Source: Gemmatimonadales bacterium
GTDB taxonomy: Bacteria > Gemmatimonadota > Gemmatimonadetes > Gemmatimonadales > JACORV01
DNA: 64,000 nucleotides
Assembly: GCA_036493755.1 (NCBI GenBank)
Contig: DASXPG010000106.1
Coordinates: 11,241 to 75,240 of the forward strand
Direction: 5' to 3'
Part shown: piece by piece, positions 9,892 through 61,868 of the stretch
Layout of the letters: the number at the start of each line of letters is the position of its first letter
Numbering within the stretch: position 1 is the stretch's first letter
Program-made: the position numbers and the translations under genes
The notes under the pieces: model-generated
What the model was told of the DNA's origin: nothing
Seen by the model: the letters and a program-made list of their open reading frames with translations, nothing else
The model's database searches: none

Positions 9892-9906
9892 ATGGGGCCC
9901 GGAAAA

Positions 9907-10518: not shown

Positions 10519-10544
10519 TTCGTGTCCTCGGTTGATGATGTCGA

Positions 10545-10586: not shown

Positions 10587-10603
10587 CCGCCATCACAACC
10601 GGA

Positions 10604-11242: not shown

Positions 11243-11356
11243 ACAAAGCCTCCTCTGGTCATGTTCTGCATCACGCGAACAAGGATGCCCAGAAGGCCGC
11301 GACCGGTCGGTAGGCAAGAATGAAGGCCGCCCGTAGGGAGGGCCCTACAGCACGGG

Positions 11357-12229: not shown

Positions 12230-12307
12230 CAGTGAAACCTGCCTTTCGAGCAGAGCGTACGCCAGTTAGACGCTCTCGCCCTCCTTACGCCGCCAGGAGC
12301 TGTCCCG

Positions 12308-43647: not shown

Positions 43648-43695
43648 TCGGGCACGCGGATGTCGGTGCGGGTGAATCGGATCGATCGGAGAGCA

Positions 43696-43767
43696 TAGCC
43701 CCAACGGGAATCGAACCCGTGTCCCCACCTTGAAAGGGTGGTGTCCTAGCCGCTGGACGATGGGGCC
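43696..43767 (-). tRNA. tRNA-Glu (anticodon UUC)
   Basis: GGCCCCA TC GTCC AGCGGCTA GGAC A CCACC CTTTCAA GGTGG GGAC ACGGG TTCGATT CCCGT TGGGGCT A. Confidence 0.9.
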
Positions 43768-43774
43768 GATTCAG

Positions 43775-43847
43775 TAGCGGTAACGGGATTCGAACCCGTG
43801 TTTCGGCCTTGAGAGGGCCACGTCCTAGGCCTCTAGACGATACCGCC
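43775..43847 (-). tRNA. tRNA-Glu (anticodon CUC)
   Basis: GGCGGTA TC GTCT AGAGGCCTA GGAC G TGGCC CTCTCAA GGCCG AAAC ACGGG TTCGAAT CCCGT TACCGCT A. Confidence 0.9.
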
Positions 43848-43856
43848 ATAAACGGA

Positions 43857-43929
43857 CAGGCCCGGCAGGAATCGAACCTGCAACCCCCGGTTTTGGAGAC
43901 CGGTGCTCTACCAATTGAGCTACGGACCT
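43857..43929 (-). tRNA. tRNA-Trp (anticodon CCA)
   Basis: AGGTCCG TA GCTC AATTGGTA GAGC A CCGGT CTCCAAA ACCGG GGGTT GCAGG TTCGATT CCTGC CGGGCCT G. Confidence 0.9.
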
Positions 43930-43934
43930 CCGAG

Positions 43935-44009
43935 GGTGGCTAACGGGAATTGAACCCGCAACCTCTGGAGCCACAGTCCAGCGCTCTAACCAATTGAGCT
44001 ATAGCCACC
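43935..44009 (-). tRNA. tRNA-His (anticodon GUG) with encoded G-1
   Basis: G GTGGCTA TA GCTC AATTGGTTA GAGC G CTGGA CTGTGGC TCCAG AGGTT GCGGG TTCAATT CCCGT TAGCCAC C. Confidence 0.9.
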
Positions 44010-44067
44010 AGGGCTCCGGGCCCGGCCCTCGCGAGCCCCAAAAGTTAATCCTGCCTGGCCCCCACTC

Positions 44068-44727
44068 TCAACCCCAGAAGCGCTGAGTCAGAAAGCTGGT
44101 CCGGTCGTCCTTGACCGCCCGCCAGTCGCCGTGCACCGCCGTTTCCAGCACGCCGCGCACCGCGTTGGCCAGAAACACCGGCAATCCCTCGATGTCGGGC
44201 CGGGTGAAACGGCCCTCGCGGACCTCGATCTTGTTCTCCTGGGCCAGCTCGATGACCCGCGCCCGCCCGATCCCCGGGAGGATGCCGATGTCGAGCGCCG
44301 GCGTGCAGAGCACCGGTCCCAGCCAGAAAAAAATACTGGTCACGCATCCTTCGGCGAGGACACCGCCCTGCGCCATCAGCAGCGCCTCATCGGCGCGGAA
44401 CGGGACCACGCGCGCCCGCGCGCGATCGAACATCTGGCGATCGGTGACCTTGTGCGGATATGGCTCGTGCCTGGTCCCCGAGAAGACGATCCGCATCGGC
44501 TCGACCGGCGGGGCCGGGCGCGATTCGATGCGCTCGCCCAGCTCATCGAGCATTACGCGCACAATCAAATCGGCGCCATGGGCATGGGCGCGCACCCGCT
44601 CCTCGAGACCCGGCTCGGGCAGCGCCCGCGCCAGCGCCTCACAGGAGCGTCTGAGCCGTGCGATGTGCTGGGAGAGGAACAGCGCCTTCCCCTCGCGGAA
44701 GCGGATCGTCTCGAAAAGTCCACTCAT
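44068..44727 (-). CDS. Aminotransferase class IV fold protein (aminodeoxychorismate lyase-like)
   Basis: MSGLFETIRFREGKALFLSQHIARL, then KVTDR, then EGCVTSIFF...LCTPALDIGILPGIGR...VREGRFT. The pattern resembles PabC/class IV enzymes but the protein is short (219 aa). Confidence 0.65.
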   Translation of the reverse strand: MSGLFETIRFREGKALFLSQHIARLRRSCEALARALPEPGLEERVRAHAHGADLIVRVMLDELGERIESRPAPPVEPMRIVFSGTRHEPYPHKVTDRQMFDRARARVVPFRADEALLMAQGGVLAEGCVTSIFFWLGPVLCTPALDIGILPGIGRARVIELAQENKIEVREGRFTRPDIEGLPVFLANAVRGVLETAVHGDWRAVKDDRTSFLTQRFWG

Positions 44728-44826
44728 CAGAGGTTAGCCTACGCTGAGGCGGCCAAACGCTCAAGCGCCGGGGAGTTGCAGGTCGGCCGTTCAAGGTGAC
44801 ATTTACCGTTCACCTGGGAGGTATCA

Positions 44827-45555
44827 GTGCCGCTCGTTCGTTGTCCGAAGCACGGCCGGGTCTACGATGATGCCAAGGCCGCAGGCTGCTCGGTCTGCAT
44901 GGAAGAGCTGGCCATGCCGCGCGCGCCCGGCGGCCGCGCAAAAGAGCCGGTGGCCGAGGCTCCGCGATCGATGGGTGGCATGATCATCCTGGCGGCGCTG
45001 ATCATCGTCGGCGTTCTGGGCGGCGCGATCTACTGGTACTCATCGACCCACAACGCCGAGACCCGGGCGAGCGCCGCGCGCGACTCGCTGCGCGCCGAGG
45101 CCGCAGGACCGCCGCAGGCCGACACCACCCACCTCGCCCTTCCCGGCGATCTGTCGCCGGTGCGCCGGGCGCGCGCGCTGCGCGGCGAGCTGGAGTCGCT
45201 GCTCCACCACGATCGCGGCGCGATCCTCGGCTTTGCAGCCGGATCGGCCGACACCACCTCGGCCGATCGCACCGCGCAGAAAAAAGCCAAGCAGTACGTG
45301 GCCTTCGCCCATCGCTGGCAGGGCGCGATCGACCGGCTGACCCGCGGCGGCACCGACTTCCGCTATCAGCCCGGCGTGCGCCTCGAGCGGCAGATGGACA
45401 ACGTCACCAACCAGCTTCAGGCCGCGGCCAGCGTGATGCGCGACATGGTGCGGATCACCGAGGTGAAGCCGCGCGCCGAGCGCAGCACCGACGTGCGCGA
45501 TGCCACTGGATACCTGAATTCGGCAGGCTCGGTGTTGTCGGGGCTTCCGAGGTGA
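44827..45555 (+). CDS. Hypothetical membrane-anchored protein with N-terminal CxxH...CxxC zinc-ribbon-like motif
   Basis: GGGAGG precedes GTG 44827. Product starts VRCPKHGRVYDDAKAAGCSVCMEE, then a single TM (MIILAALIIVGVLGGAIYWY), then a ~170-aa helical region. Confidence 0.55.
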   Translation: MPLVRCPKHGRVYDDAKAAGCSVCMEELAMPRAPGGRAKEPVAEAPRSMGGMIILAALIIVGVLGGAIYWYSSTHNAETRASAARDSLRAEAAGPPQADTTHLALPGDLSPVRRARALRGELESLLHHDRGAILGFAAGSADTTSADRTAQKKAKQYVAFAHRWQGAIDRLTRGGTDFRYQPGVRLERQMDNVTNQLQAAASVMRDMVRITEVKPRAERSTDVRDATGYLNSAGSVLSGLPR

Positions 45556-45598
45556 GGCATGCAGACGCGCGGCCGCGCAGCCGCGCGGCGGCGCGGTC

Positions 45599-46081
45599 GT
45601 GACCAATTCCTCGCCCGGCGCGCGGCTGCGCGCCTCGTGGGACCGGCTCTCCCGGCTTCCCGGCGGGCGCTGGCTCTTCAGCAGACTGCTCCGTTTCGTG
45701 AATCCCTACTCGGGCGCCGTTGGCGCACGGGTCGAGGAGCTGCAACCGGGCCATGCGCGGCTCACTCTCACGGACCGGCGCGCGGTCCGCAATCATCTGA
45801 ACTCGGTCCACGCCATCGCGCTGGCGAACATCGCCGAGCTGGCGAGCGGGCTGGCGATGCTCTCGGCACTCCCCGATACCGTGCGCGGCATTCCGACCGG
45901 CATTTCCATCCAGTACCTGAAGAAGGCGCGCGGCGTGCTCACGGCCGAAGCGCGGGTCGTCATCCCCACGGTCACCGGCGACATGAATTTCGAGGTGACC
46001 TCCACGGTGAAGAACGCCGCCGGCGAGGAGGTCGCCCACGCCACGGTCAGCTGGAAGCTGGGGCTGATCCCCGGGCGATGA
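45599..46081 (+). CDS. Hotdog-fold protein (DUF4442/PaaI-like thioesterase)
   Basis: NPYSGAVGARVEELQPGHARLTLTDRRAVRNHLNSVHAIALANIAELASG resembles the DUF4442/PaaI pattern. Its stop overlaps the next start (ATGA). Confidence 0.6.
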   Translation: MTNSSPGARLRASWDRLSRLPGGRWLFSRLLRFVNPYSGAVGARVEELQPGHARLTLTDRRAVRNHLNSVHAIALANIAELASGLAMLSALPDTVRGIPTGISIQYLKKARGVLTAEARVVIPTVTGDMNFEVTSTVKNAAGEEVAHATVSWKLGLIPGR

Positions 46082-47097
46082 CCGATTCGGCGCACGACGC
46101 ACGACGGACGACGCACGATGCACCGCTTCAAACGCCGCTGACCCGCGACGCCGGTTGCGACATCCCCATCATCGGCGGCGCGATGTACCCCTGCAGCAAT
46201 CCCGAGCTGGTCGCCGCGGTTTCGGCCGCGGGCGCCATCGGCGTCGTCCAACCGGTCTCGCTGACCTACGTCCACGGCCACGACTACCGGGAAGGACTGC
46301 GGCTCATCCGCCGGCTCGCTCCCGGCAAGCCGATCGGCATGAACGCGCTGATCGAGAAGTCTTCGAAGCTCTACCTGGAGCGGATGACGACGTGGATCGA
46401 CGTCGCGCTCGAGGAAGGGGTACGCTTCTTCATCACCTCGTTAGGCAACCCGCGCTGGGTGGTGGACCGGGTGGCGGCGGCCGGCGGCAAGGTCTACCAC
46501 GACGTCACCGAACGGAAATGGGCGCTCAAGGCGAGGGACGGCGGCGTACACGGCCTGATCTGCGTGAACAGCCGTGCCGGCGGACACGCCGGCGCGCTGA
46601 CACCCGAGGCCTTGATCGCCGAATGCGGCGACCTGGGATTGCCCCTGGTCTGCGCCGGCGGCGTCGGCGACGAGAGCGATTTCGTCCGCGCCATGCGGCT
46701 CGGCTATGCCGGGGTGCAGATCGGCACCCGCTTCATCGCCACCACCGAGTGCAACTCGCGGGCCGACTACAAGCAGGCGATCCTGAACGCCGGCGAGGAC
46801 GACATCGTCCTCACCGAGCGGGTGACCGGGGTGCCGATCGCGGTGATCCGGACGCCGTACATCGAGCGCATCGGTACCAGCATCGGGCCCATCGCGCGCC
46901 GCCTCTTTCGCGGCCGCCGCACCCGCCACTGGATGCGAACCTTCTACGCGCTCCGCTCGTTGCGAAAGATGAAGACCGATTCGGTGACCGGCTCCGGCAC
47001 CGGCGAGTACTGGCAGGCGGGAAAAAGCGTCCACGGCATCACATCGATCGAGCCCGCGGGGGATATCATTCGCCGATTTGCTGCCGCCGCGTCCTGA
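46078..47097 (+). CDS. Nitronate monooxygenase (NMO / FabK-like FMN oxidoreductase) family protein
   Basis: IPIIGGAMYPCSNPELVAAVSAAGAIGV, VNSRAGGHAG and LVCAGGVGD...GYAGVQIGTRF. Confidence 0.85.
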   Translation: MTDSAHDARRTTHDAPLQTPLTRDAGCDIPIIGGAMYPCSNPELVAAVSAAGAIGVVQPVSLTYVHGHDYREGLRLIRRLAPGKPIGMNALIEKSSKLYLERMTTWIDVALEEGVRFFITSLGNPRWVVDRVAAAGGKVYHDVTERKWALKARDGGVHGLICVNSRAGGHAGALTPEALIAECGDLGLPLVCAGGVGDESDFVRAMRLGYAGVQIGTRFIATTECNSRADYKQAILNAGEDDIVLTERVTGVPIAVIRTPYIERIGTSIGPIARRLFRGRRTRHWMRTFYALRSLRKMKTDSVTGSGTGEYWQAGKSVHGITSIEPAGDIIRRFAAAAS

Positions 47098-47120
47098 AGG
47101 ACGCTACATTCAGCCCCGAC

Positions 47121-48314
47121 ATGACGGGACTTCGGCAGACCCCATTCCACCCCCGCACATCGGCCCTGATGGAAGGCGCAAACTGGCGCCGCTGGGCCGG
47201 ATACACCGTGGCGAGCTCCTACGAGCTGCTGCACGACCGCGAGTATCACGCGATCCGCAGCTCGGCCGCGCTGCTCGACGTGACGCCCCTCTACAAGTAC
47301 CTGGTGACCGGCAAGGACGCCGCGCGGCTGGTCGATCGCGTTATCGTCCGCGACGCGCTGCACGCCAGGGTCGGCCAGGTGATGTACACCTGCTGGTGCG
47401 ACAGCGCCGGCAAAGTCATCGACGACGGCACCGTGTCGCGGCTCGGCGACGAGACGTTCCGAATCACCTCGGCGGATCCCTCGTTGCGCTGGTTCGCCCT
47501 CAACGCGGCCGGCCTCCATGCGAAGATCGAAGACGTCACGGAATCCACCGCCGCGCTGGCGCTGCAGGGGCCCAATGCCCGCGCCATTCTCCAGCAGCTC
47601 ACCGGCGCCGACCTCGCGCACCTCAAGTACTTCCGCGTCGTCTCGACGACGCTGCGCGACATGCCGGTCCAGATATCGCGCACCGGCTACACCGGTGACC
47701 TCGGCTACGAGATCTGGCTGCACGCCCACGACGCCCTCGCGATCTGGGACGCGCTGATCGAGGCGGGAACGCCGTACGGCATCGTCCCCTGCGGAATGCT
47801 GGGCCTCGACATGGCCCGCATCGAGGCGGGGCTCATGCTGCTCGAAGTCGACTACGTCTCGGCGCACCGCGCCCTGATCGAGGGCCAGAAGTCGTCGCCC
47901 TACGAGCTGAACCTCGGCTGGGCGGTGGACCTCAAGAAGGAATGGTTCGTCGGCAAGGATGCCCTGGCCCTCGAGGCGGCGCGCGGACCGGCCTGGCGTT
48001 TCATCGGCATCGAGGTCGATTGGGAAAACCTCGAGCGGTTGTACGCCGAGGTGAAGCTTCCGCCGAGACTGCCGGCGCAGGCGTGGCGGGTCAGCGTGCC
48101 GTTGTACGTCGAGGGACGGCAGGTCGGCTACGCGACCAGCGGCTGCTGGTCGCCGCTGCTCAAGAAGTACATCGCGCTGGGGCACGTCGAAGCGGCCTAC
48201 GGCAATCCCGGCTCTCGGCTGGCGATGGAAGTCACCGTCGAGCACCGCCGCAAGCAGGCCGCCGCGACGGTGGTGCCCACACCCTTCTTCAATCCCGACC
48301 GGAAGCGCGCCTGA
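47121..48314 (+). CDS. GcvT-family aminomethyltransferase-like (folate-binding) protein
   Basis: TPFHPRT, EYHAIRSSAALLDVTPLYKYLVTG, ALALQGPNA, ISRTGYTGDLGYEIW and GLDMARIEAGL. Confidence 0.85.
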   Translation: MTGLRQTPFHPRTSALMEGANWRRWAGYTVASSYELLHDREYHAIRSSAALLDVTPLYKYLVTGKDAARLVDRVIVRDALHARVGQVMYTCWCDSAGKVIDDGTVSRLGDETFRITSADPSLRWFALNAAGLHAKIEDVTESTAALALQGPNARAILQQLTGADLAHLKYFRVVSTTLRDMPVQISRTGYTGDLGYEIWLHAHDALAIWDALIEAGTPYGIVPCGMLGLDMARIEAGLMLLEVDYVSAHRALIEGQKSSPYELNLGWAVDLKKEWFVGKDALALEAARGPAWRFIGIEVDWENLERLYAEVKLPPRLPAQAWRVSVPLYVEGRQVGYATSGCWSPLLKKYIALGHVEAAYGNPGSRLAMEVTVEHRRKQAAATVVPTPFFNPDRKRA

Positions 48315-49897
48315 TGGCCGCCAATCGCTACGACGCGATCGTCATCGGCGGCGGCCACAACGGACTGATCGCCGCCGCCTACCTGGCGCGCGCCGGCCGG
48401 AAGGTCGTCGTCCTCGAGCGGCGCGAGCGGGTGGGCGGCGCGGCGGTGACCGAGGAAATCTTCCCCGGCTTCAAGTTTTCGATGTTCTCGTACGTGGTCA
48501 GCCTGCTGCGCCCCGAGATCATCCGCGACCTGCGGCTTCCCGAGCACGGCCTCCAGATTCTCCCGCTCGAGAGCACGCTGACGCCCATGGAAAACGGCGA
48601 CTACTTCGCCGCCTGGGCCGATCACGACCAGACCCGCCGCGAGCTGCTGCGGCATTCGGCGCTCGACGCCGAAGCGTACGACGAGTACGGCCGGCTGATG
48701 TACCACATGGCCCACGCGGTGAAGCCGATCCTCGGCATGGTGCCTCCCGACCCGGCGTCGCTGCGGCCCCGCGACCTCAAGGGGATGCTCGCCGTCGGCA
48801 ATCACTTCCGCTCGTTAGGCGCCGAGCAGTTCCACGCCATGTTCAAGCTGATGACCATGAGCTCGGCGGATTTCCTCGACGAGTGGTTCGAGACCGACGT
48901 CCTCAAGGCCACCAAGTCGGCGAGCGGGATCATCGGCACCTTCCTGGGCCCGCGCTCGCCGGGAACGGCCTACGTCCTCCTCCATCATTACATGGGCGAG
49001 CTGGACGGCGTGTTCCGCGCCTGGGGCTTCCAGAAGGGCGGCACCGGCGGAATCTCGGAAGCGATCGCCGCCTCGGCTCGATCGCTCGGCGTTGCAATCA
49101 GGTGCGGCCAGACGGTGCAGAAGGTGCGCGAGAAGGATGGCCGGGTCCGCGGCGTGGTCCTCGAGAATGGCGACGAGATCGACGCGAACATCGTGCTGAC
49201 GAGTCTCGATCCCCGGCGCAGCTTCCTCGAGCTGGTGGACCGGAAGGCGCTCCCCGACGAGTTCGTGGCGGACATCAGCCGCTTCAAGTTCCGCGGCTCC
49301 TCGGGAAAGGTGAACCTCGCGTTAGGCGCCCTCCCCGATTTCACCTGCATGCCCGGCTTCGGCCCGCACCTGCGCGGCGCCATGTCGATATCGCCCAGCA
49401 TGGACTACGTCGAGCGGGCCTACGACGACGCCAAGTACGGCGAGTTCTCGAAGCGCCCGTACATGGACATCGTGATCCCCTCGCTCATCGATCCCGGGAT
49501 GGCGCCTCCCGGCAAACACGTCATGTCGGTCTTCGTGCAGTACGCGCCGTACAACCTGAACGGCGGCTGGACCGACGCGAAGCGCGAGGCATTCGGCGAC
49601 GCCGTGATCGGCGCCATCGAGCGCTTCGCGCCCAACATCCGCTCCTGCATCGAGCACCGGCAGGTGCTGACGCCGCTCGACATCGAGCGCATCACCGGGC
49701 TGTCCGAAGGCAACATCTTCCAGGGCGAGCTGGCGCTCCACCAGCTCTTCTTTCTCCGGCCCGCTCCGGGCTGGGCGCGCTTCCGCACGCCGATCAGGAA
49801 TTACTACCAGTGCGGTTCGGGGACGCACCCCGGCGGCGGCATCATGGGCGCTTCCGGACGGCTCGGCGCGATGGCGGTGCTGGAGGACCACGCGTGA
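48314..49897 (+). CDS. Phytoene-desaturase-family NAD(P)/FAD-dependent oxidoreductase (CrtI-like), copy 1
   Basis: YDAIVIGGGHNGLIAAAYLARAGRKVVVLERRERVGGAA (dinucleotide fold) and C-terminal CGSGTHPGGGIMGASG. Confidence 0.85.
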   Translation: MAANRYDAIVIGGGHNGLIAAAYLARAGRKVVVLERRERVGGAAVTEEIFPGFKFSMFSYVVSLLRPEIIRDLRLPEHGLQILPLESTLTPMENGDYFAAWADHDQTRRELLRHSALDAEAYDEYGRLMYHMAHAVKPILGMVPPDPASLRPRDLKGMLAVGNHFRSLGAEQFHAMFKLMTMSSADFLDEWFETDVLKATKSASGIIGTFLGPRSPGTAYVLLHHYMGELDGVFRAWGFQKGGTGGISEAIAASARSLGVAIRCGQTVQKVREKDGRVRGVVLENGDEIDANIVLTSLDPRRSFLELVDRKALPDEFVADISRFKFRGSSGKVNLALGALPDFTCMPGFGPHLRGAMSISPSMDYVERAYDDAKYGEFSKRPYMDIVIPSLIDPGMAPPGKHVMSVFVQYAPYNLNGGWTDAKREAFGDAVIGAIERFAPNIRSCIEHRQVLTPLDIERITGLSEGNIFQGELALHQLFFLRPAPGWARFRTPIRNYYQCGSGTHPGGGIMGASGRLGAMAVLEDHA

Positions 49898-51318
49898 GCC
49901 GCTCCGTGGTGGTGATCGGCGCCGGGACCAACGGTCTGACCGCGGCGCAGATACTCGCGACATCGGGGCGGCAGGTCATCGTGCTCGACCAGAAGCAGCC
50001 CGCCGACGTCGACTTCGACGCCGGTTGGGTGCCACCGAGCGTCCGCGCCGCGCTCAACATTCAGCCGGAGGCCGAGGAGCAGGGTTCCTGGCTGGTGATG
50101 CCGATGGAGGGCGGGCGCTTCGAGCTCTTTGCCGACATCGCCCGCTCGGCCGAATCGATCCGGAGGCTCAGCCCGCGCGATGCGTCGCGCTGGCCGGAAT
50201 TCTGCACCCGCATGCGGCGCCTGGCTGGAGTGCTCGAGACGCTCTATCAGCAGAACGCCCCCGACGTCGAGACCACCGATCCCGGAGAGCTGATGCACCT
50301 CGCCCTCCTCGGACTCAGGGTCCGCGGGCTGGGCCGGCAGACCGTGATCGACCTGCTGCGCATTCTGCCGATGCCGGTCGCCGAGCTGCTCGACGAGTGG
50401 TTCGAGAGCGAGCTGCTCAAGGCGGCGGTCGGCTCGACCGGCGTCATGGATCTGTGCCAGGGGCCGCGTTCGGCGGGAACGGCGTTCGTGATGCTGCACC
50501 ATCACGTGGGCCGGCCGGCCGGTGTCTTTCGGCCGCTTCGCACCAGCCTGCGCTCGACATTGTCGAAGCGGACCAACGTCGAGATCCGCCACGACGCCGC
50601 GATGCACCTCGAGGTCGCCGGCGAGCGTATCCGCGCCGTGACCCTCGAGAGCGGCGACACCATCGAGACCGACTGCCTCGTCTCCAGCGCTGACCCGCGC
50701 CGCACCATGCTCGACCTCCTCGATCCGGGCTGGCTCGACCCCGAATTCATGCGCGCGGTGCACAACATCAAAATGAAGGGTGTCGCCGGGACGGTGACCC
50801 TCGCCCTGAGCTGCGAGGCGCCGTTCAGGCAGATGAGCCTGGCGCCGTCGCTGACCCACATCGAGCGCGCCTACGACGATGTGAAATACGGACGACCATC
50901 AGCGCAGCCGTGGCTGGAATTGAGGAACAGCGGGCAAAAGATCGAGGTGCAGGTCCAATACCTGCCGCAGGTCCCGCGCGAGGGCGCGTGGGACGAGGCC
51001 GGGAAGCGCTCGTTAGGCAACGACGTCGCCCGGCGGGTGGTCGACGCGGCGCCCGAGCTGAAGGATGCCATCACCGGCATCCGCGTCATGACCCCGCTCG
51101 ATCTGGACGCCCACGGCGGTCTCACCGGCGGTCACCGGTACCAGGGCGACCTGACCCTCGACCAGATCCTCTTCATGCGCCCGGTGGCGGGCTGGAGCCG
51201 GTATCGCACTCCGATCGGCGGGCTCTGGCTCTGCGGCTCGGGAACCCATCCCGGCGGCGGCGTCGCCGGCGCGTCAGGACTGCTCGCGGCGCGCGAGATT
51301 CTGCGGGACGCCCGGTGA
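49894..51318 (+). CDS. Phytoene-desaturase-family FAD-dependent oxidoreductase (CrtI-like), copy 2
   Basis: VVVIGAGTNGLTAAQILATSGRQVIVLD and C-terminal CGSGTHPGGGVAGASG. GTGA overlap with copy 1. Confidence 0.8.
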   Translation: MSRSVVVIGAGTNGLTAAQILATSGRQVIVLDQKQPADVDFDAGWVPPSVRAALNIQPEAEEQGSWLVMPMEGGRFELFADIARSAESIRRLSPRDASRWPEFCTRMRRLAGVLETLYQQNAPDVETTDPGELMHLALLGLRVRGLGRQTVIDLLRILPMPVAELLDEWFESELLKAAVGSTGVMDLCQGPRSAGTAFVMLHHHVGRPAGVFRPLRTSLRSTLSKRTNVEIRHDAAMHLEVAGERIRAVTLESGDTIETDCLVSSADPRRTMLDLLDPGWLDPEFMRAVHNIKMKGVAGTVTLALSCEAPFRQMSLAPSLTHIERAYDDVKYGRPSAQPWLELRNSGQKIEVQVQYLPQVPREGAWDEAGKRSLGNDVARRVVDAAPELKDAITGIRVMTPLDLDAHGGLTGGHRYQGDLTLDQILFMRPVAGWSRYRTPIGGLWLCGSGTHPGGGVAGASGLLAAREILRDAR

Positions 51319-52418
51319 CAGCGTTCCAGAAAACGGCCGAGAGTTACCGGCCGGGCGCGCGAACGATGGAAGGGCGCTACTACACGTCGCCCGACATCTT
51401 CGCCCAGGAGCGGGAGAAGATCTTCGCCCGCCGCTGGATCTGTGTCGGGCGCGAATCGCAGGTCGCCGTGACGGGCGCCTACATCGTGGCAGAGATTGCG
51501 GGCGAGAGCATCATCGTGGTGCGGGACAAGCCGGGCATCCTGCACGCGTTCTACAATGTCTGCCGGCATCGCGGTACCAGGCTCTGCGAAGCGGCGCAGG
51601 GAAGCTTCGGCGGCTCGATCCAGTGTCCCTATCACGCCTGGACCTACGGCCTCGACGGGCGCCTGATCGGCGCCCCGCACATGAACGAAGTCGAATCCTT
51701 CGACAAGGCCGACTATCCGCTGCACGCCGTCGCCGTTGCGATGTGGGAAGGGTTCGTCTTCATCAACCTCGCGGCCCGGCCCGAGCCGTTCGACCTGGCA
51801 TTCGCGCCCGTCACCGGCCTATTCGAGCGCTATGGGTTGGCTCGGCTGCGCGTAGTGCGGCGGATCGAATACGAGGTGAAAGCCAACTGGAAACTGATCC
51901 TTCAGAACTACAACGAGTGCCTGCACTGCCCGACGATCCATCCCGAGCTCTCCACCACGTTGCCCTATACCAGCGGCGCCAACGATCTCACCGACGGCCC
52001 CTTCCTCGGCGGCTACATGGAAATCAAGGCGCCTAACGAAAGCGCAACCATGAGCGGCAGGATGTGCGCGATACCGCTCAGTGGAGCGAGTGGAGCGAGA
52101 GCGTACTACTACGCGCTGTTCCCGACCATGATGCTGAGCCTGCATCCAGACTACGCAGTGTATTACACGGTCTGGCCGAAGTTGCCCGACGCGAGCCGCG
52201 TGGTCTGCGAGTGGATGGTGCATCCGGACGCCCCATCGGCCCCGGGGTACAACATCGCCGATGCCGAAGAGTTCTGGGACGTCACCAATCGGCAGGACTG
52301 GCACATCTGTGAGCAGAGCCATGCGGGCATCAGCTCCCGCGCCTACACTCCCGGACCCTACTCTCCTCGCGAGAGCATCCCCGCCGCCTGGGACCGGGAG
52401 TACCTCAAGAGCCTCTAA
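51315..52418 (+). CDS. Rieske [2Fe-2S] non-heme-iron oxygenase alpha subunit
   Basis: Rieske ligands CRHRG...CPYHAW. Mononuclear iron motif NYNECLHCPTIHP (H-x4-H). GTGA overlap with the previous gene. Confidence 0.85.
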   Translation: MTAFQKTAESYRPGARTMEGRYYTSPDIFAQEREKIFARRWICVGRESQVAVTGAYIVAEIAGESIIVVRDKPGILHAFYNVCRHRGTRLCEAAQGSFGGSIQCPYHAWTYGLDGRLIGAPHMNEVESFDKADYPLHAVAVAMWEGFVFINLAARPEPFDLAFAPVTGLFERYGLARLRVVRRIEYEVKANWKLILQNYNECLHCPTIHPELSTTLPYTSGANDLTDGPFLGGYMEIKAPNESATMSGRMCAIPLSGASGARAYYYALFPTMMLSLHPDYAVYYTVWPKLPDASRVVCEWMVHPDAPSAPGYNIADAEEFWDVTNRQDWHICEQSHAGISSRAYTPGPYSPRESIPAAWDREYLKSL

Positions 52419-52494
52419 CTGACGGGCCCTTCAGGACGTGCATAGCCGAGCGCGTCCTTCAGGACGCATCTCGCAGCGACCTATCGCATCTTCT

Positions 52495-52523
52495 TTGACC
52501 TCTCCTGCATCCCGCAATATGTT
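52495..52523 (+). promoter_or_regulatory. Candidate sigma70-type promoter for the formate dehydrogenase operon
   Basis: TTGACC (52495-52500), a 17-nt spacer, TATGTT (52518-52523), about 38 nt upstream of the ATG. The RBS gagggag is at 52549-52555. Confidence 0.4.
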
Positions 52524-52561
52524 CTGAAGTGTAGTAATGGCATCCACTTGAGGGAGCGCAC

Positions 52562-54493
52562 ATGCGCGGCAAGAACGAACGCGGCTACGTCCGGCTCGAA
52601 ACGCCGCTCGTCCGGGAGAAGGGCGTTCTGCGCCCCGCTTCCTGGGAGAGCGCACTCGACCGGGCGGCGGAGGGCTTTGCCCATATCCGCGAGACCCGGG
52701 GCGGCGACGCCATCGGGATCTTCAGCTGCTCGAAGTCGACGAACGAGATGAACTTCCTCGCGGGGAAACTGGCTCGCCAGGCGTTCGGCTCGCATAACGT
52801 CGACAGCTGCAACCGGACCTGACACGCTCCTAGCGTCGTCGGTCTGGCGACAGCGTTTGGCGCGGGCGGGGGCACCACCTCGTACCGCGAGATGGAAGAG
52901 ACGGATGTGATTTTCCTCTGGGGCGCGAACCCCAGGGAGAATCATCCGATCATCTACCATCACATCCTGAAGGGGATTCACCACGGCGCGAAACTCTACG
53001 CGGTGGATCCTCGGCGGACGCCTTCGGCCCAGTGGGCCGATGTGTGGATGGGTCTCAACGTCGGCAGCGACATCGCGCTCTCGAATGCGATGGCGCGGGT
53101 CATGATCCATGAAGGCCTGGTGCACGAACATTTCGTCGCCCACGCGACGACCGGTTTTGACGCGTATCGGACGTCGGTGGAACCCTGGACCCTCGACAAG
53201 GCCGAGCAGGTCACGGGCGTCCCGGCCGACGTGATCCGTGAAGCGGCGATCACGTATGCGAAGGCGAAGAAGGCGATCATCTGCTGGACCCTCGGAATCA
53301 CGGAGCACCACAACGCCGTCGACAATGTTCTGGCACTCATCAACCTCTCCCTCCTCACCGGCCACGTCGGACACTATGGCTCGGGGCTCAGCCCGCTGCG
53401 CGGACAGAACAACGTCCAGGGCGGCGGCGACATGGGCGCGATTCCCAACAAGCTCGTCGGCTTCCAGGACCCGCTCGATCCCGCCATCAAATCGCGCTTC
53501 GAGAAGGCGTGGGGCGTGCAACTTCCGAACAAGCTCGGCTGGACGATCACCGACATGTTCCACGCCATGGAGCGCGGCGACATGACCGGACTCTTCGTGA
53601 TCGGCGAAAATCCGGCGCAGTCGGAAGCGGACCAGCACCACACCCAGGCGATGCTCGAAGGCCTGGAGCACATGGTGGTACAGGACATTTTCCTGACCCG
53701 GACCGCGCAACTCGCCCACGTCGTTCTCCCTTCGACGGCGAGCTGGTGCGAGAGCGACGGCACGGTGACCAACAGCGAGCGCCGGGTCCAGCGGGTGCGC
53801 GCCGCGCTCCAGCCACCGGGCGACGCGCGCGACGAGCTGTGGATTCTGTCGGAAATGGCGAAGCGCCTCGGCATCGACTGGGGCAAACCCACGGCCGAGA
53901 GCGTCTGGAACGAAGTGCGCACCATGGCGCCGGAAATGTTCGGCGGGATGAGCTATCCGCGCCTCGAGAAACTCGGCGGCATCCAGTGGCCCTGCCCGGA
54001 CGAATCGCATCCCGGCTCGCTGCTGCTCCACGACCGGCTCTGGGCCGAGCCGCGGGGCGGCCCGCCGGCACCGTTCAGCGTCGTGGTCTACGAGCCGCCG
54101 GTCGAGATGCCCGACGCCGAGTATCCCTTCCAGCTCACCACCGGGCGCCGCCTCGATTCGTACAACACCGGGGTGCAGACGGCGGGCTACGCCTCGCCAC
54201 TTCGGCGCGCGGAAACGGTCGACATGTCGCCCGAAGATGTCGATCGACTCGGCCTCGAGGAGGGCGACAGCGTGGAGATCGCGTCCCGGCGCGGCTGCGT
54301 CGTCGCCCCGGTGCACGTGGAACCCAATCTCAGGCCCGGCCTCGTCTTCATGACGCTGCACAACCAGGACGACGTGCGCGTCAACCTGCTCACCATCGAC
54401 GTCACCGATCCCAAGTCGGGCACCGCGGAGTTCAAGGCCTGCGCCGTGCGCATCGAGCCGGTGCGCAAGCCCGCCGCGGCCGCCGGCGACTGA
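52562..54493 (+). CDS. fdhA: Formate dehydrogenase catalytic (molybdopterin) subunit lacking the N-terminal Fe-S domains; in-frame UGA (52820-52822) read as selenocysteine
   Basis: ORFs 52562-52822 and 52892-54493 share one frame, interrupted only by TGA. Across it the translation is NVDSCNRT-U-HAPSVVGLATAFGAGGGTTS, the FdhF active-site motif (VDCCARV-U-HGPSVAGL). The downstream molybdopterin and dinucleotide-binding domains are intact. Confidence 0.85.
52823..52855 (+). promoter_or_regulatory. SECIS-like recoding hairpin
   Basis: gtcgtc (52835-52840) pairs with ggcgac (52846-52851) around the loop GGTCT. The GGTCTG starts 18 nt after the UGA, the same spacing as in E. coli fdhF (UGA-N18-GGUCUG). 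Confidence 0.6.
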
Positions 54494-54506
54494 AGCAAGG
54501 GAGCTC

Positions 54507-56377
<1,871 letters not shown>

Positions 56378-56381
<4 letters not shown>

Positions 56382-57322
56382 GCGAAGGACCGCGCAACGA
56401 GCGCGTCGAAATCAGCGTGGACGGCGAGAACGTCACGGTACCGAAGGGCGGCACCATTCTCGACGCCTGCCGGCAGCTGGGGCGCGAGATCCCGACCCTC
56501 TGCTACCTCGAGACGCTGCACCCGGTCAACGCCTGCCGGGTTTGCGTCGTCGAGCTGGAAGGCTCGCGGGTGCTGGTCCCCTCCTGCTCGCGCATCGCGA
56601 CACCCGGCATGAAGGTGAAAACCGACTCGCCGCGGGTGAAGCTCAGCCGCAAGATGGTGCTGGAATTCCTGGATTCGTCGGTTGACCTGTCCACCGCGCC
56701 TAACGTCGAGGGCTGGCTGGCCGAGTACGGTTGCGACAGCGAGCGCTACGGCCCCGAAGCCCAGCCGGCCACGGCCGGCGAGCGTGACGAGGCGCCGGCC
56801 GGCCACCATCACAAGCCGGATCCCGCCGTCGCCGCGACCGTGCACCAGCCGGTCAAGGTCGACAACGACCTCTACGTGCGCGACTACTCCAAGTGCATTC
56901 TCTGCTACAAGTGCGTCGAGGCCTGCGGGACCGACTACCAGAACACCTTCGCCATCGCCGTCGCGGGTCGCGGATTCGACGCGCGAATCTCGACCGAAAT
57001 GGCCGTCCCCCTCCCCGATTCGGCGTGCGTCTACTGCGGCAACTGCATCGCCGTCTGTCCCACCGGCGCGCTGATGTTCAAGACCGAGCACGATCGTCGC
57101 GCCGAGGAGACCTGGGACGAAGCGAAGCAGCACGTCACCGACACCATCTGCCCCTACTGCGGCGTGGGCTGCACGCTCCAGCTCCGGGTGCAGGAAAACC
57201 AGGTCGTCCGGGTCACCTCGCCGCTCGACCACTCCATCACCCGTGGAAACCTCTGCATCAAGGGACGATTCGGCTGGCGCTTCGTCGAGAATCGGAGCCG
57301 GCAGCGCGATGTCGACGACTGA
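56378..57322 (+). CDS. NuoG-like Fe-S subunit: 2Fe-2S, two 4Fe-4S ferredoxin motifs, and the Fe4S4 cap normally fused to the molybdopterin domain
   Basis: TLCYLE...NACRVCVVE...PSC (2Fe-2S), CILCYKCVEAC and CVYCGNCIAVCP (ferredoxin-type). It ends ICPYCGVGCTLQLRV...GNLCIKGRFGWRFV, then stops. ATGA overlap with the NuoEF gene. Confidence 0.85.
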
Positions 57323-58166
57323 CGAGCCGCCACCGGAGCTGCAGCCCGATCATCCGCTGAGGGGACTCGGCTACCGCGATCCGGTACGCGGCAGGCCGGT
57401 GACGCTGCTCGACGGGAACGCGCGCCATATCAACGAAGCGGCCGTCGTCGAAGAAGTGCCGGTCGCGATGATCTACAATTCCCAGCCCCATGCCGTGATG
57501 ATGGCGACGCCGGCCGACTTCGAGGATTTCGCGGTCGGGTTTTCGCTGTCGGAAGGAATCGTCGCGTCGGCGAAGGAAATCTCGAAGCTCGAGGTGCTGC
57601 GCTACGCCCAGGGCGTCGAAGTGCAGCTCACGATTCCCGATGCGGCGCTGGCGCGGCTCAAGGATCGCGGGCGCGCGCTGATCGGCCGGGTGGGATGCGG
57701 ACTCTGCGGCGTGCAGACCATCGAAGAGGCGCTGCGGCAGCCCAGGCCGGTCGCGCCGGGCGCGAAGATCCGGGTCGATGCCCTCTGGCGCGCGGAGCGG
57801 GAATTGCCCGCACTCCAGAAGCTCAACCAGGATACGGCATCGCTGCACGCGGCGGCATGGGCCAACGATGACGGCCTTCCCGAGATCGTGCGCGAGGACG
57901 TAGGACGTCACAACGCGCTGGACAAAGTGATCGGTGCGCTGGCCCGCACCGGGAGAAATCCCGCCGATGGCTTCGTGGTGATAACCAGCCGGGCGAGTTA
58001 CGAGCTCGTACAGAAAGCCGCGGCGGTCGGAATCAGGCTGCTGGCCGCGGTGTCACGGCCCACCGGGCTGGCCATCGGTCTCGCCGAAACCAGCGGCCTG
58101 ACCCTGGTGGCCCTGCTCCGCGGAAAGACCGCGAGCATTTACGCCCATGGCGAGAGGTTGCAATGA
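57309..58166 (+). CDS. fdhD: Formate dehydrogenase accessory sulfurtransferase FdhD
   Basis: EVPVAMIYNSQPHAVMMATPADFEDFAVGFSLSEGI, GCGLCG, GRHNALDK and SRASYELVQKAA. Confidence 0.9.
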   Translation: MSTTDEPPPELQPDHPLRGLGYRDPVRGRPVTLLDGNARHINEAAVVEEVPVAMIYNSQPHAVMMATPADFEDFAVGFSLSEGIVASAKEISKLEVLRYAQGVEVQLTIPDAALARLKDRGRALIGRVGCGLCGVQTIEEALRQPRPVAPGAKIRVDALWRAERELPALQKLNQDTASLHAAAWANDDGLPEIVREDVGRHNALDKVIGALARTGRNPADGFVVITSRASYELVQKAAAVGIRLLAAVSRPTGLAIGLAETSGLTLVALLRGKTASIYAHGERLQ

Positions 58167-58768: not shown

Positions 58769-58840
58769 GAACGGGGAACGAGGAACGGGGAACGAGGAAG
58801 CCAAACCCTTCCCCCTTCCCCGTTCCCCGTTCCCCGTTCT
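58768..58840. terminator. Long hairpin built from GGGGAAC-type heptamer repeats between convergent genes
   Basis: gaacggggaacgaggaacggggaacgagg pairs with cccccttccccgttccccgttccccgttc (26 of 29 positions) around an ~11-nt loop. It fills the entire gap between two stop codons. Confidence 0.6.
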
Positions 58841-61539
58841 CAGTCCGCTCTTAAGGTCTCCGCTGGATCCAGCGACGCGGCGCGCCACGCCGGGATCGCA
58901 CCGGCGGCCAGTGCCACCAACCCAAGCACCACGGCCGACAGGGCCAGGGTCAGCGGATCGTTGCGCTGCACTCCGTAGAGGAACGACGCCACCAGTTTCG
59001 TCGCCGCCAAGGCGCCGGCGAGTCCGAAGATCGCGCCCAGGCCGATCAGCGTTCCCGCTTCGCCCAGCACCATCTTCAGGACGCGCGAGCGCGCCGCGCC
59101 TAACGCGAGCCTGATGCCGATCTCGTTGCGCCGCTGCGCCACCCCATACGCCATCGTACCGTAGAGCCCGATGATCGCCAGCAGCAAGGCCAGGCCGCCG
59201 AAGAAGCCCGACACCGTCGCCAGCAGCCGCGGGCGCCGGATCGATTCCGACACTTGCCGGGTCAGGGTCACAAAATCCAGCTGGGCCGCGTGGTTCTCCG
59301 CCAGCGCCGCCGCGGTCACTTGTGCCGAGAGCGCCAACGGATCGCCGGCTGCGACCCGCAGCTCATACGACGCCTCGCTCCCGAACCAGTCGGTCTGGCT
59401 GTTGGGGACGTAGGCGATCGGCTGGAGCTCTTCGTTGAGTTTGCCGTACTTCGCATTCTCAACCACGCCCACGATCTGGAATGGGTGGCCCGGCTTGCCG
59501 TCCACCCCGGAGATCCGGAAGCTGCGGCCCAGCGGCGAGCCACCGGGGAAGTACGCGTGCGCCATGGCCTCATTGATGACGGCCACGAAAGGCGCGCCGA
59601 TCCGGTCACCCTCGGCGATGTCGCGACCGCCCCGCAGCTCGGTGCCGAGGGTCTGGAACCACCCGGGGCTCACCATGTTGAAGTCGACCGACGTCTTCCG
59701 GTCGCGTACCACCGAGTCGCCGTCGGCGATCACCTGCTCGTTCCACCCGCTGCCGCTGATCGGCGACGTGAACGAGAGCGCAGCCGAGCGTACACCCGGG
59801 AGGGCGCGCAGCTTCTCGAGCAGGTCATCGCGCATCAGTCGCTGACGCGCGCTGTCGAGCCCCGAGTTCCCGAAGTCGACCGTCGCGACGAGCACCCCCT
59901 CGCGCCGGAAGCCCGGATTCATGGTGGTCAGCCGCCGGAAGGTCCCGACCAGCAGCCCCGCCGCGACCACCAGCACCAGCGACAAGGCGATCTGGCCGAT
60001 GACCAGCGCCCGCGCGACGGGCAGCCGGGCGGCCGTGGTGCCCCGGCTCTGGGCCTTCATCGCCGCCTGCGGATCGACCCGCGTCGCCCGCCAGGCCGGC
60101 GCCAGGCCGAAGAGCACACCGGTGGCCACCGCGACCGCGACCGCGAAGCCGAGGACCCGCAGGTCCGGGTGCAGATCGAGCCAGACGCTGCCGTTGCGGG
60201 TGGCCAGGTACCGGACCAGCAGCGCGCTGGCCCAGCGCGCGAAGACGATGCCTAACGATGCGCCGAGTCCGGCGAGCAACAGGCTCTCGGTCAGCAGTTG
60301 CCGGACCAGCCGGCCCCGCCCCGCGCCCATGGCCAGCCGCACCGCCATCTCCCGCTGCCGCGCCGTCGCGCGGGCCAGCAGCAGATTGGCCACGTTGGCG
60401 CAGGCGATCAGCAGCACCACGCCGACCACCACCAGCAGCACCGTCAGTGCCTTGCTGTACTGGTGGCGCACATCGGAGGTGCCGCCGGCCCCCGCTTCGG
60501 CCCACAGCGTCCGCTTCAGGTAGTCGTGCTGGTACTCGCGTCCCCAGTTGCCCGGCAGCGTGGCCTGGTACACGCTCGGTGCCATCGCGGCGAGCCGCGA
60601 GCGTGTGACTTCGATCGACTGGCCCGGCGGCAGCCGGCCCATGATCCGCAGAAACCAGTTCCCGCGATGATCCAGCGCCTGCGGATCGCCACTGATGATG
60701 GGACGGGCGCAGAGCGGCACGTAGATCGCCGGTGCGTTCCCGATCTCCATTCCGGTGAACGCGGGGTCGGTCACCCCGACGATCGTGACCGGATGGCCAT
60801 CGAGCGGCAGCGAGGCGCCCACCGCGGCGCCGGCGGCGCCGAATTGCCGCTGGGCGAACCCGGAGCTGAGAACCGCCACCGGCGTGCAGCCGCGCACATC
60901 GTCGCCGGCGGTGAGGAGACGGCCGGCGGCCGCGCCAACGCCCAGCACCTGGAAGGCGCCGCCGCTCACCCAGTACGCGGGAATCCGCCGAACCACACCG
61001 CCGGTCGAGAGATCGAAGCGGGTGTCGCCGTACGCGAAGAATGAGCCGACACCGCTGCTGCGGTCCCGGACCGCTTCCCAGATGGGATTGGTGAGCACGG
61101 CGCTGCCGCTGACCGGACCCTGCGAGGGCCGTTCGTCCGTCACGGCGATGAGCGACGCGGGATCGTTCACCGGCAGCGACCGGAGCATCACCGCATTGAC
61201 GAGGGTGAAGATCGCCGCGTTGGCGCCGATGCCGAGAGCGAGCGAGAGAATGGCGATCGCCGCAAAGCCGGGATTGCCCCGCAGCCCCCGAAGCGCGTAC
61301 CGGAGGTCGTCCGCGACGGACGCCAGCCAGCCCAGGAGATCGGCGTCGCGGGTCTGTTCCTTCATCACCGTTCGGTTGCCGAAACGCCGCCGCGCTTCAG
61401 CCTCCGCATCGGGGCGGCTCATGCCCGCGCGCATCAGGTCGTCCACCCGCTCGTCCAGGTGGAACGACATTTCCCGTTCGGCACCGGCCGAGAGGGCGTC
61501 GTCGCGGAAGAGATTCCCGAGCCGCCGGAAAAAGCTCAC
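58840..61539 (-). CDS. ADOP/MacB-like ABC transporter permease with N-terminal prefix domain (899 aa)
   Basis: The prefix MSFFRRLGNLFRDDALSAGAEREMSFHLDERVDDLM precedes DDLRYALRGLRGNPGFAAIAILSLALGIGA. Also has [31 protein letters not shown] and QRRNEIGIRLALGA. Its GTG start overlaps the padR stop. Confidence 0.9.
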   Translation of the reverse strand: MSFFRRLGNLFRDDALSAGAEREMSFHLDERVDDLMRAGMSRPDAEAEARRRFGNRTVMKEQTRDADLLGWLASVADDLRYALRGLRGNPGFAAIAILSLALGIGANAAIFTLVNAVMLRSLPVNDPASLIAVTDERPSQGPVSGSAVLTNPIWEAVRDRSSGVGSFFAYGDTRFDLSTGGVVRRIPAYWVSGGAFQVLGVGAAAGRLLTAGDDVRGCTPVAVLSSGFAQRQFGAAGAAVGASLPLDGHPVTIVGVTDPAFTGMEIGNAPAIYVPLCARPIISGDPQALDHRGNWFLRIMGRLPPGQSIEVTRSRLAAMAPSVYQATLPGNWGREYQHDYLKRTLWAEAGAGGTSDVRHQYSKALTVLLVVVGVVLLIACANVANLLLARATARQREMAVRLAMGAGRGRLVRQLLTESLLLAGLGASLGIVFARWASALLVRYLATRNGSVWLDLHPDLRVLGFAVAVAVATGVLFGLAPAWRATRVDPQAAMKAQSRGTTAARLPVARALVIGQIALSLVLVVAAGLLVGTFRRLTTMNPGFRREGVLVATVDFGNSGLDSARQRLMRDDLLEKLRALPGVRSAALSFTSPISGSGWNEQVIADGDSVVRDRKTSVDFNMVSPGWFQTLGTELRGGRDIAEGDRIGAPFVAVINEAMAHAYFPGGSPLGRSFRISGVDGKPGHPFQIVGVVENAKYGKLNEELQPIAYVPNSQTDWFGSEASYELRVAAGDPLALSAQVTAAALAENHAAQLDFVTLTRQVSESIRRPRLLATVSGFFGGLALLLAIIGLYGTMAYGVAQRRNEIGIRLALGAARSRVLKMVLGEAGTLIGLGAIFGLAGALAATKLVASFLYGVQRNDPLTLALSAVVLGLVALAAGAIPAWRAASLDPAETLRAD

Positions 61540-61868
61540 GCGAACTGCACCACGTGCCGGACGCCTTCGGTCAGCCGCGCCCAGCTCTCCAGCTCCGTTG
61601 CGAGCTGGCGTTTCCCCGCCGCCGTGATGGTATAGAAGCGCGCCTCACGATTCTTCTCCGTCACGCCCCACTCGGCGCGCACCCATCCGTCCTGCTCCAT
61701 GCGATGGAGGGCCGGATAGAGCGAGCCTTCCTCGACCCGCAGCAATTCGCGCGAGGCCGTCTGGATGTGGGCGGTGATCGCATAGCCGTGCATCCGGCCC
61801 TGCGCGGTGAGGGTCTTGAGCACCAGCAGGGCGAGGGTGCCCTGGAGAATGTCGGAGCGTCGAGGCAT
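61536..61868 (-). CDS. PadR-family transcriptional regulator
   Basis: LQGTLALLVLKTLTAQGRMHGYAITAHIQ...EGSLYPALHRMEQDGWV...YTITAAGKRQL. Confidence 0.9.
   Translation of the reverse strand: MPRRSDILQGTLALLVLKTLTAQGRMHGYAITAHIQTASRELLRVEEGSLYPALHRMEQDGWVRAEWGVTEKNREARFYTITAAGKRQLATELESWARLTEGVRHVVQFA

Follow-up and report, generated by a model that had tools for sequence, protein, structure and literature searches.

The window analysed here is a 64-kb stretch of a Gemmatimonadales contig. Its forward strand carries, at 52562-58166, four consecutive genes that together appear to encode a formate dehydrogenase (FDH): a molybdenum (Mo) subunit with a predicted selenocysteine (Sec), a fusion of NuoE and NuoF, an iron-sulfur (FeS) subunit and the maturation factor FdhD. 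A single in-frame TGA crosses the gene for the Mo subunit, and our analysis points to this codon being decoded as Sec. On the sequence and comparative evidence given below, we put the probability of this reading at roughly 0.93.

The catalytic gene and its active site

Reading positions 52562-54493 directly, we found a frame that opens with ATG, closes at a TGA stop codon (54491-54493), and has the TGA at codon 87 as its sole interruption. This bears out the first-pass annotation of the locus, which had described a single TGA in a 643-codon frame at the Cys/Sec position of a conserved motif. The motif at this TGA (SCNRT*HAPSVVGL) has its equivalent in E. coli fdhF (CCARV*HGPSVAGL; the K-12 sequence was fetched and served as our standard for spacing and motif), and the predicted peptide over residue 87 is SCNRT-U-HAPSVVGLATAFGAGGGTTSYR. 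Similarly, alignment to E. coli FdhH and to the FdhF of the hydrogen-dependent CO2 reductase (HDCR) sets U87 on their Sec/Cys position. The predicted protein combines U87-H88 with R280-G-Q, matching the U/C-H ... R-G-Q pattern of class I FDHs (PMC8808070). The GC content at third codon positions (GC3) is 0.88 upstream of the TGA and 0.87 downstream.

The domain content of this polypeptide is that of a partial alpha subunit. A Pfam scan of the gene returned Molybdopterin (PF00384, 2.2e-67) and Molydop_binding (PF01568, 3.8e-27) and nothing else; Molybdop_Fe4S4 (PF04879), the proximal 4Fe-4S domain (FS0) sought at the N-terminus of the catalytic polypeptide, was absent from the scanned gene. The Fdh-alpha model TIGR01591 (cutoff 666.25) matched over its positions 53-672 and gave 652.7 bits. 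The score lies below the cutoff because the split of the gene moves model positions 1-53 onto the FeS subunit, and residues 256-308 of that subunit indeed match these positions with 53.6 bits. The coordinates of all features are collected in Table 1.

Table 1. Features of the FDH operon in the window (W, tungsten; bis-PGD, bis-pyranopterin guanine dinucleotide; SECIS, selenocysteine insertion sequence; FMN, flavin mononucleotide)
Feature	Position	Strand	Basis or remark
Probable ribosome-binding site, GAGGGAG	52550..52556	+	5 nt before ATG; sequence read directly, function inferred
Predicted Mo/W-bis-PGD catalytic subunit of FDH	52562..54493	+	643 codons, Sec at codon 87; Pfam, TIGR01591, PDB alignment
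UGA, predicted Sec codon (U87), putative metal ligand	52820..52822	+	TGA in 81/81 sequences
His88	52823-52825	+	Codon directly after UGA
Possible extended SECIS, lower stem 52825-52830/52859-52864 round the upper hairpin	52825..52864	+	Weak support
SECIS upper hairpin (predicted)	52835..52851	+	Stem 52835-52840/52846-52851, loop GGUCU 52841-52845; RNAalifold, entropy, minihelix energy
Predicted catalytic Arg280, RGQ motif	53399-53401	+	U-H...RGQ active-site pattern
NuoE-NuoF fusion subunit (2Fe-2S, FMN/NAD(H) site, 4Fe-4S); probable NAD-linked electron exit	54507..56381	+	Pfam, NCBIfam, PDB
FeS subunit, equivalent to the N-terminal third of FdsA: 2Fe-2S, 4Fe-4S clusters, C-terminal Molybdop_Fe4S4 (FS0)	56378..57322	+	Pfam, TIGR01591, PDB
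FdhD sulfurtransferase, FDH maturation factor	57309..58166	+	Pfam FdhD-NarQ; TIGR00129

Within the window, TGA is the stop codon of 20 of the 27 confident open reading frames (ORFs), including this gene's own terminator. The standard code therefore applies, with no genome-wide reassignment of UGA. When we scanned the window for further selenoprotein candidates with an in-frame TGA, the only return was a pair of adjacent, frame-sharing genes at 39650.

The hairpin after the UGA and its conservation

The hexamer GGTCTG stands at 52841-52846, exactly 18 nucleotides (nt) 3' of the TGA. The arrangement in E. coli is TGA-CACGGCCCATCGGTTGCA-GGTCTG, with a spacer that is likewise 18 nt long, and the UGA-N18-GGUCUG likeness proposed in the first-pass annotation was thus upheld on the fdhF sequence itself. 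That annotation had also placed the whole hexamer in the loop of a 6-bp stem. The stem, gtcgtc/ggcgac, stands as described, pairing the six bases before the hexamer with 52846-52851; since ggcgac contains the last G of GGTCTG, the loop had to be redrawn as the pentaloop GGUCU. Numbered from the U of the UGA, the stem occupies nt 16-21/27-32 and the loop reads G22-G23-U24-C25-U26, with G23 and U24 in the apical loop. In E. coli numbering, the upper hairpin of the SECIS comprises nt 15-31, about 11 nt after the UGA, with G23 and U24 as apical-loop positions, and the contacts named for SelB are G23 and U17 (PMC8659212).

To place the codon and the hairpin in an evolutionary context, we scanned one genome per GTDB species. 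At least 596 relatives were found, and the best 80, which are 63-77% identical to the window gene and of which 79 reach the stop codon, were used for comparison; the 81 sequences mentioned in the following are these 80 and the window gene. The closest are metagenome-assembled genomes (MAGs) of Gemmatimonadales and Gemmatimonadaceae, followed by members of the Vicinamibacterales, Gaiellales, Thermoleophilia, Chloroflexota, Planctomycetota, Eisenbacteria, Rokubacteria and WPS-2. Overall, the set covers at least eight phyla (Gemmatimonadota, Acidobacteriota, Actinomycetota, Chloroflexota, Planctomycetota, Eisenbacteria, Rokubacteria and WPS-2).

All 80 relatives carry TGA at this codon and none carries Cys, and the base after the TGA is C in 81/81 sequences. 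The tblastn alignments to the relatives cross the TGA in one frame, and in the 79 relatives that reach the stop the TGA is followed by 547-583 open codons with no other in-frame stop. Two checks suggested by the first-pass annotation, namely whether orthologs have TGA or TGC here and whether they show independent frame disruptions, therefore both came out on the side of a selenoprotein, the second in 79 complete copies.

The protein databases mirror this pattern. Among the best 120 protein matches to the window gene, 119 begin just past the TGA codon (495-559 amino acids (aa), 76-85% query coverage), which is the signature of gene callers stopping there. The lone full-length match, P0105, comes from a singleton 2.2-kb contig (locus L085; ENA JX_farmland_Scaff04675514, gene 170-2107) and has CGA (Arg) at codon 82 with the GTCGTCGGTCTGACGAC hairpin intact; the CGA is probably a sequencing error or an inactive allele. 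No Cys variant of the clade was seen among the 80 loci or the best 120 proteins. In a comparison with 50%-identity representatives, the clade members (51-58% identical) are without exception cut off at the TGA. The next relatives share no more than 45% identity; they comprise fused proteins about 900 residues long and FdhF-like ones of about 700 residues, and have Cys at the site. The UGA thus falls on a position at which homologues carry Sec or Cys, the fused ones having Cys.

We then examined synonymous variation in a codon alignment, which took in all but one of the 81 sequences, the remaining one being too short. The codons of the hairpin, Val-Val-Gly-Leu-Ala, have synonymous entropies of 0.29, 0, 0.10, 0 and 0.31 bits, versus a mean of 1.36 bits for a baseline of 237 conserved codons that are four-fold or more degenerate. 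The eight lowest 10-codon windows of the whole gene start at alignment codons 80-87, the TGA being codon 81. Of the 80 aligned sequences, 79 retain GGT CTG, and both codons are minority choices in the window gene, where GGT accounts for 3 of 59 Gly and CTG for 15 of 52 Leu codons.

The secondary structure is conserved together with the codons. From the alignment alone, RNAalifold returned exactly the 6-bp stem with the GGUCU loop, and all six pairs form in 81/81 sequences. In four actinobacterial MAGs, two synonymous substitutions turn one stem pair from C-G into G-C, and a U.G pair becomes U-A in seven sequences and C-G in six. As controls, we inspected two Cys-type fused homologues, whose Gly-Leu codons are GGG CTG and GGC CTT: one has no hairpin here (0 kcal/mol), and the other has a weaker and different 5-bp fold (-5.2 versus -8.3 kcal/mol). 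As far as sequence comparison can carry, we consider that this evidence decides the Sec question, far beyond chance.

A larger structure around the hairpin is less clear. In a 13-pair model, made up of a 7-bp upper helix and a lower stem, 89.3% of the alignment cells are paired, versus 31-66% when the partners are slid against each other. In the lower stem, 82.5% of the cells are paired across the relatives, one pair forms in only half of the sequences, the synonymous sites are unconstrained, and the minimum-energy fold of the window takes another register. We therefore dropped the lower SECIS stem as an established element, the pairing level and the free synonymous sites being too weak a support.

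The extended SECIS is also less regular in the window than in most relatives (52852-52857 and 52828). ACA in place of ACG costs the upper stem its seventh pair in the window sequence, the lower stem contains a U/C mismatch, and the Thr-Ala codons ACAGCG open an alternative pairing that RNAfold favours.

Weighing selenocysteine against other readings of the UGA

Several observations weigh against a SECIS and Sec at this locus. The pattern TGA-N18-GGTCTG occurs once in the window, where 0.48 occurrences are expected per shuffled window. The 51-nt fold is no better than its shuffles (z = -0.27), and is uninformative because GC-rich coding sequence folds this well anyway. The 19-nt minihelix (-8.3 kcal/mol, z = -2.76) is the sole unusual single-sequence measure; motif and fold energy in the window sequence are, by themselves, not beyond chance. 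The folding check proposed in the first-pass annotation gave a divided answer: the alignment fold supports the stem register described there, whereas the minimum-energy fold of a 46-nt piece of the window prefers a shifted one, in which GGUCU remains in a loop. The hairpin lacks the bulged U17 on which E. coli SelB depends: U17 pairs with A31 in the conserved stem, and this requirement may be particular to the E. coli protein. Finally, the four actinobacterial MAGs with G-C in place of C-G are related to each other, and the exchange may have happened only once.

Comparison with SECIS models, likewise proposed at first reading, gave one match below threshold. The Rfam model SECIS_3 (RF01989), the sole Rfam SECIS model to match the window, aligned at 52817-52873, and its register agrees with both the UGA and the GUCU loop. 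Its score of 17.3 bits is below the gathering score of 63, so the element does not count as a member, and SECIS_2 (RF01988) gave no match at E <= 10. For calibration, we scored E. coli fdhF on both models and obtained 87.1 bits on SECIS_2 and only 35.8 bits, below threshold, on SECIS_3. Since the genuine E. coli element fails the same model, we no longer count the SECIS_3 shortfall as evidence against the hairpin; the two models are specific to narrow lineages.

A further point on this side is that the Sec machinery was not found close to the gene. As the first-pass annotation had stated, the window holds neither a tRNA-Sec nor sel genes: ARAGORN and Rfam, the latter at gathering thresholds, detected only ordinary tRNAs in the 64 kb, and tblastn with E. 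coli SelA, SelB and SelD as queries had no match there. The window is 100% identical, over its positions 1-13429 and 42892-55356, to the 66.6-kb contig Ga0376682_0000258 of JGI 3300036806, and runs about 8.6 kb past the end of that contig, which falls within the NuoE-NuoF gene; the window therefore derives from a longer assembly that represents the same population. In the 9 kb of this contig that were read upstream of the window start, neither sel genes nor a tRNA-Sec were called, and the only genes are for MacB-type permeases. The ordinary tRNAs of the window include a cluster of four on the minus strand at 43696-44008 (Glu-UUC, Glu-CUC, Trp-CCA and His-GUG).

The flanks of the relatives gave a different picture. 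Five of the 80 orthologues have a tRNA-Sec within 10 kb upstream: one in a Thermoleophilaceae genome (L057), three in Chloroflexia (L060, L069 and L080) and one in Chloroflexi (L074). These make up 5 of the 13 tRNAs in all flanks, and 5/5 pass the threshold of Rfam RF01852. In L057, L060, L069 and L074 the tRNA-Sec is accompanied by selA, selB and selD; in L080 (3001-7872), selD was the only one of these three genes detected beside it. In the Thermoleophilaceae locus, selA, selB, tRNA-Sec, selD and fdhD follow each other at 5345-9757 and abut the orthologue, and Pfam recognizes there SelA, a SelB with SelB-wing_3 and an AIRS-type SelD. Such linkage agrees with published work in which sel genes are clustered and move together with fdhA (PMC1794560).

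By analogy with E. coli, the hairpin, some 13-31 nt downstream of the UGA, would present G23 and U24 to the C-terminal winged-helix domain of SelB, and SelB-GTP, competing with release factor 2, would bring Sec-tRNA(Sec) to the A site. Homology further suggests that, in the resulting 643-residue Mo or W bis-PGD subunit, Sec87 serves as metal ligand in an active site completed by His88 and Arg280. Formate-derived electrons would enter the proximal 4Fe-4S cluster, supplied in trans by the C-terminal domain of the FeS subunit, and would pass along the FeS chain to the FMN of the NuoE-NuoF fusion and finally to NAD+. FdhD would insert the sulfido ligand.

Of the other readings we considered, the one that fares best is nevertheless very improbable. 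It holds that the UGA is read through as Cys, Trp or Gly, by near-cognate decoding or local recoding, the Sec machinery having been lost or selenium being scarce. That no such machinery was found in the window and the adjoining 9 kb would agree with it, and so would the invariant C after the UGA, since termination is weak at UGA-C, which favours read-through. It has to contend, however, with TGA serving as the main stop in the window, with a SelB-type G23/U24 hairpin conserved at the E. coli spacing, and with the linkage described above, of tRNA-Sec in five relatives and of selA, selB and selD in four. Moreover, in an organism lacking Sec machinery one would expect TGC to become fixed, which is seen in no relative.

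We give even less credence to a pseudogene, in which a Cys codon (TGC or TGT) would have mutated to TGA and GGTCTG would be merely two conserved Gly-Leu codons. Gly-Leu is indeed conserved in the proteins of Cys-type homologues too, so that the match to GGTCTG is partly due to protein sequence; the motif's chance expectation per window and the missing Sec machinery in the window also speak for this view. A lesion of this kind is hard to reconcile with a TGA shared by all 80 relatives across at least eight phyla with no TGC, TGT or other disruption, and with rare synonymous codons fixed exactly over the hairpin. In addition, the similar GC3 on both sides of the TGA indicates that coding constraint was kept, and the operon partners and FdhD are intact. 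The view of the first-pass annotation, that the gene encodes a selenoprotein rather than being a pseudogene, is thus supported by the conservation of the codon, the constraint on the hairpin and the linkage to Sec genes in relatives.

Equally unlikely are two real genes, a peptide of 86 residues ending at the TGA and a protein of about 533 residues from ATG 52892: JGI and ENA gene callers do split the sequence this way (86 + 533 aa on the identical contig, 83 + 543 aa in relatives) and fission at another place, the FeS/Mo junction, is tolerated in this enzyme family, but both products would lose the metal ligand and the HAPSVVGL active-site segment, the 23 codons from the TGA to ATG 52892 are protein-conserved in frame, no start codon or ribosome-binding site is conserved after the TGA (the called starts vary, giving products of 495-559 aa), and the constraint on the hairpin would be left without explanation. 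All three alternatives fail because the TGA is invariant, without reversal to Cys, in 80 species, because no further damage is seen, and because the rare hairpin codons are selected. Decoding of the UGA as Sec is the reading that we retain.

A divided alpha subunit, related enzymes and the surrounding genes

The partners of the catalytic subunit are well recognized by domain models. The NuoE-NuoF fusion contains 2Fe-2S_thioredx, Complex1_51K, SLBB and NADH_4Fe-4S in Pfam, is matched by the NCBIfam nuoF_fam, NuoE and FDH gamma models, and aligns to FDH beta subunits in PDB (6vw7_B, 7e5z_B and 6tg9_B). The FeS subunit (314 residues), whose ATG overlaps the NuoE-NuoF stop codon (ATGA), contains Fer2_4, Fer4 and, at residues 252-305 (328-381 of the long ORF scanned), Molybdop_Fe4S4. 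The last gene scores 197.8 bits on the FdhD model TIGR00129, against a cutoff of 140.9; its start, ATG 57309, was chosen as the position at which homology to relatives begins.

The two outer subunits align consecutively to one protein. Residues 9-308 of the FeS subunit correspond to residues 24-308 of R. capsulatus FdsA (6tg9_A), and residues 11-636 of the Mo subunit to its residues 308-936. As in FdsABG-type enzymes, the catalytic gene is accompanied by NuoF-like and NuoE-like modules, here as one fusion; the single FdsA polypeptide of these enzymes is lacking, the break lying at the equivalent of FdsA residue 308. Judged from these alignments, an FdsA-type alpha subunit is split right after its proximal 4Fe-4S domain, with the halves in reversed order and NuoE-NuoF between them. 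The gene is thus predicted to encode not a whole FdhF-like protein but the molybdopterin half of a split FdsA-type subunit, and the proximal 4Fe-4S domain, which is normally integral to the catalytic polypeptide in those enzymes of the superfamily that have one, is predicted to be present in trans, a variant architecture of the FDH alpha subunit. The order Mo, NuoE-NuoF, FeS recurs in all relatives whose sequence extends far enough, and also on megabase ENA contigs. The part of the literature accessible to us held no description of a split FDH alpha subunit, and the architecture is possibly new.

In four Chloroflexi-group relatives, 1.2-3.4 kb lie between the Mo and NuoE-NuoF genes (L060 11914-13107, L069 11893-14907, L074 7423-10167 and L075 2604-6004). 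The insert of L074 comprises a glyoxalase-family ORF and a 503-residue ORF without Pfam match.

Among the characterized enzymes close to it is FdsABG(D), the NAD+-dependent Mo enzyme of R. capsulatus and Cupriavidus necator (6tg9/6tga and 6vw7), which shares the set of domains and cofactor sites, the NuoF-like and NuoE-like modules, and a maturation gene, FdhD/FdsC, in the operon. The differences are that FdsA is one polypeptide with a Cys ligand, whereas the window has two genes in reversed order around NuoE-NuoF and a predicted Sec ligand, and that NuoE and NuoF are fused in the window operon. Such a fusion also forms the beta subunit of the two-module, NAD-linked tungsten enzyme FDH1 of Methylobacterium extorquens (Fdh1AB; 7e5z/7vw6). 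The alpha subunit of FDH1 aligns to the window Mo subunit with E = 8e-137, yet Fdh1A is a single polypeptide of about 990 residues and the alpha subunit of the window is divided.

E. coli FdhH, encoded by fdhF (RF01988; PDB 1aa6/1fdo), has the UGA at the homologous metal-ligand codon, followed by CAC (His), and is 38% identical to the window protein over 639 residues, including the U-H...RGQ active site. It differs in carrying its own FS0 4Fe-4S domain and in belonging to formate hydrogenlyase, whereas the window subunit lacks FS0 and has NuoEF-type partners. The two RNA elements place G23 and U24 apically at equal numbering, with the same UGA-N18-GGUCUG arrangement. The E. coli loop is a tetraloop, GGUC, closed by A-U, whereas that of the window is a pentaloop, GGUCU, closed by C-G; the window hairpin has no bulged U17 and its stem sequence is unrelated. 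A lead towards a closer parallel is the SECIS of Moorella thermoacetica fdhA, known from SelB-RNA crystal structures, which would have a continuous stem, a C-G-closed GGUCU pentaloop and no bulged U. The alpha subunit of the Moorella FDH is a fused polypeptide.

FdhA is the most widespread bacterial selenoprotein (PMC9312934), and a Sec-containing FdhA with a SECIS downstream of its UGA is already well known; what is less ordinary at this locus is the predicted split and permuted subunit and the near-identity of the SECIS across phyla. This near-identity may point to horizontal transfer of the operon, perhaps together with the Sec trait. Among the 80 relatives, the clade is Sec-type without exception. 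Tentatively, and at less than even odds in our estimate, the relatives could constitute an unrecognised clade of Sec-dependent, probably NAD-linked FDHs that is widespread in soil phyla (at least 596 GTDB species), that arose by fission and permutation of FdsA with FS0 supplied in trans, and that has been undercounted.

In public annotations, the gene appears on the identical contig and in nearly all close relatives as fragments of 83-86 and about 530-550 residues, labelled 'formate dehydrogenase major subunit' or 'YjgC'. With the gene interrupted by the UGA and the FeS domain lost from it through the split, the enzyme is annotated as unrelated fragments; as the miscalled fragments lose the active-site residue, it is likely to be undercounted. 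If the proposal is true, this undercounting would extend to metagenomic surveys of formate metabolism, and selenium dependence would reach the formate dehydrogenase of abundant soil phyla, Gemmatimonadota included. In the partly accessible literature, we found no paper on selenoproteins in Gemmatimonadota. An alpha subunit that is consistently split, its proximal FeS domain sitting on a separate polypeptide, would also be a natural experiment on enzyme assembly, and may interest engineers of CO2-reducing formate dehydrogenases.

Just upstream of the operon, on the same strand (46068-52418), lie genes for a GcvT-like folate-binding aminomethyltransferase, two flavoproteins of the amine-oxidase or D-amino acid oxidase (DAO) type, and the alpha subunit of a Rieske ring-hydroxylase. 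Together these look like an N-methyl demethylation cluster, which could deliver one-carbon (C1) units to the FDH. Downstream of the operon, at 58840-61644, the window encodes an ATP-binding cassette (ABC) permease of the MacB/FtsX type, with a paralogue at 997-3429, both of about 800-817 residues. At least six such permease genes stand in tandem on the JGI contig (L086 12430-22433), the array continuing out of the window start.

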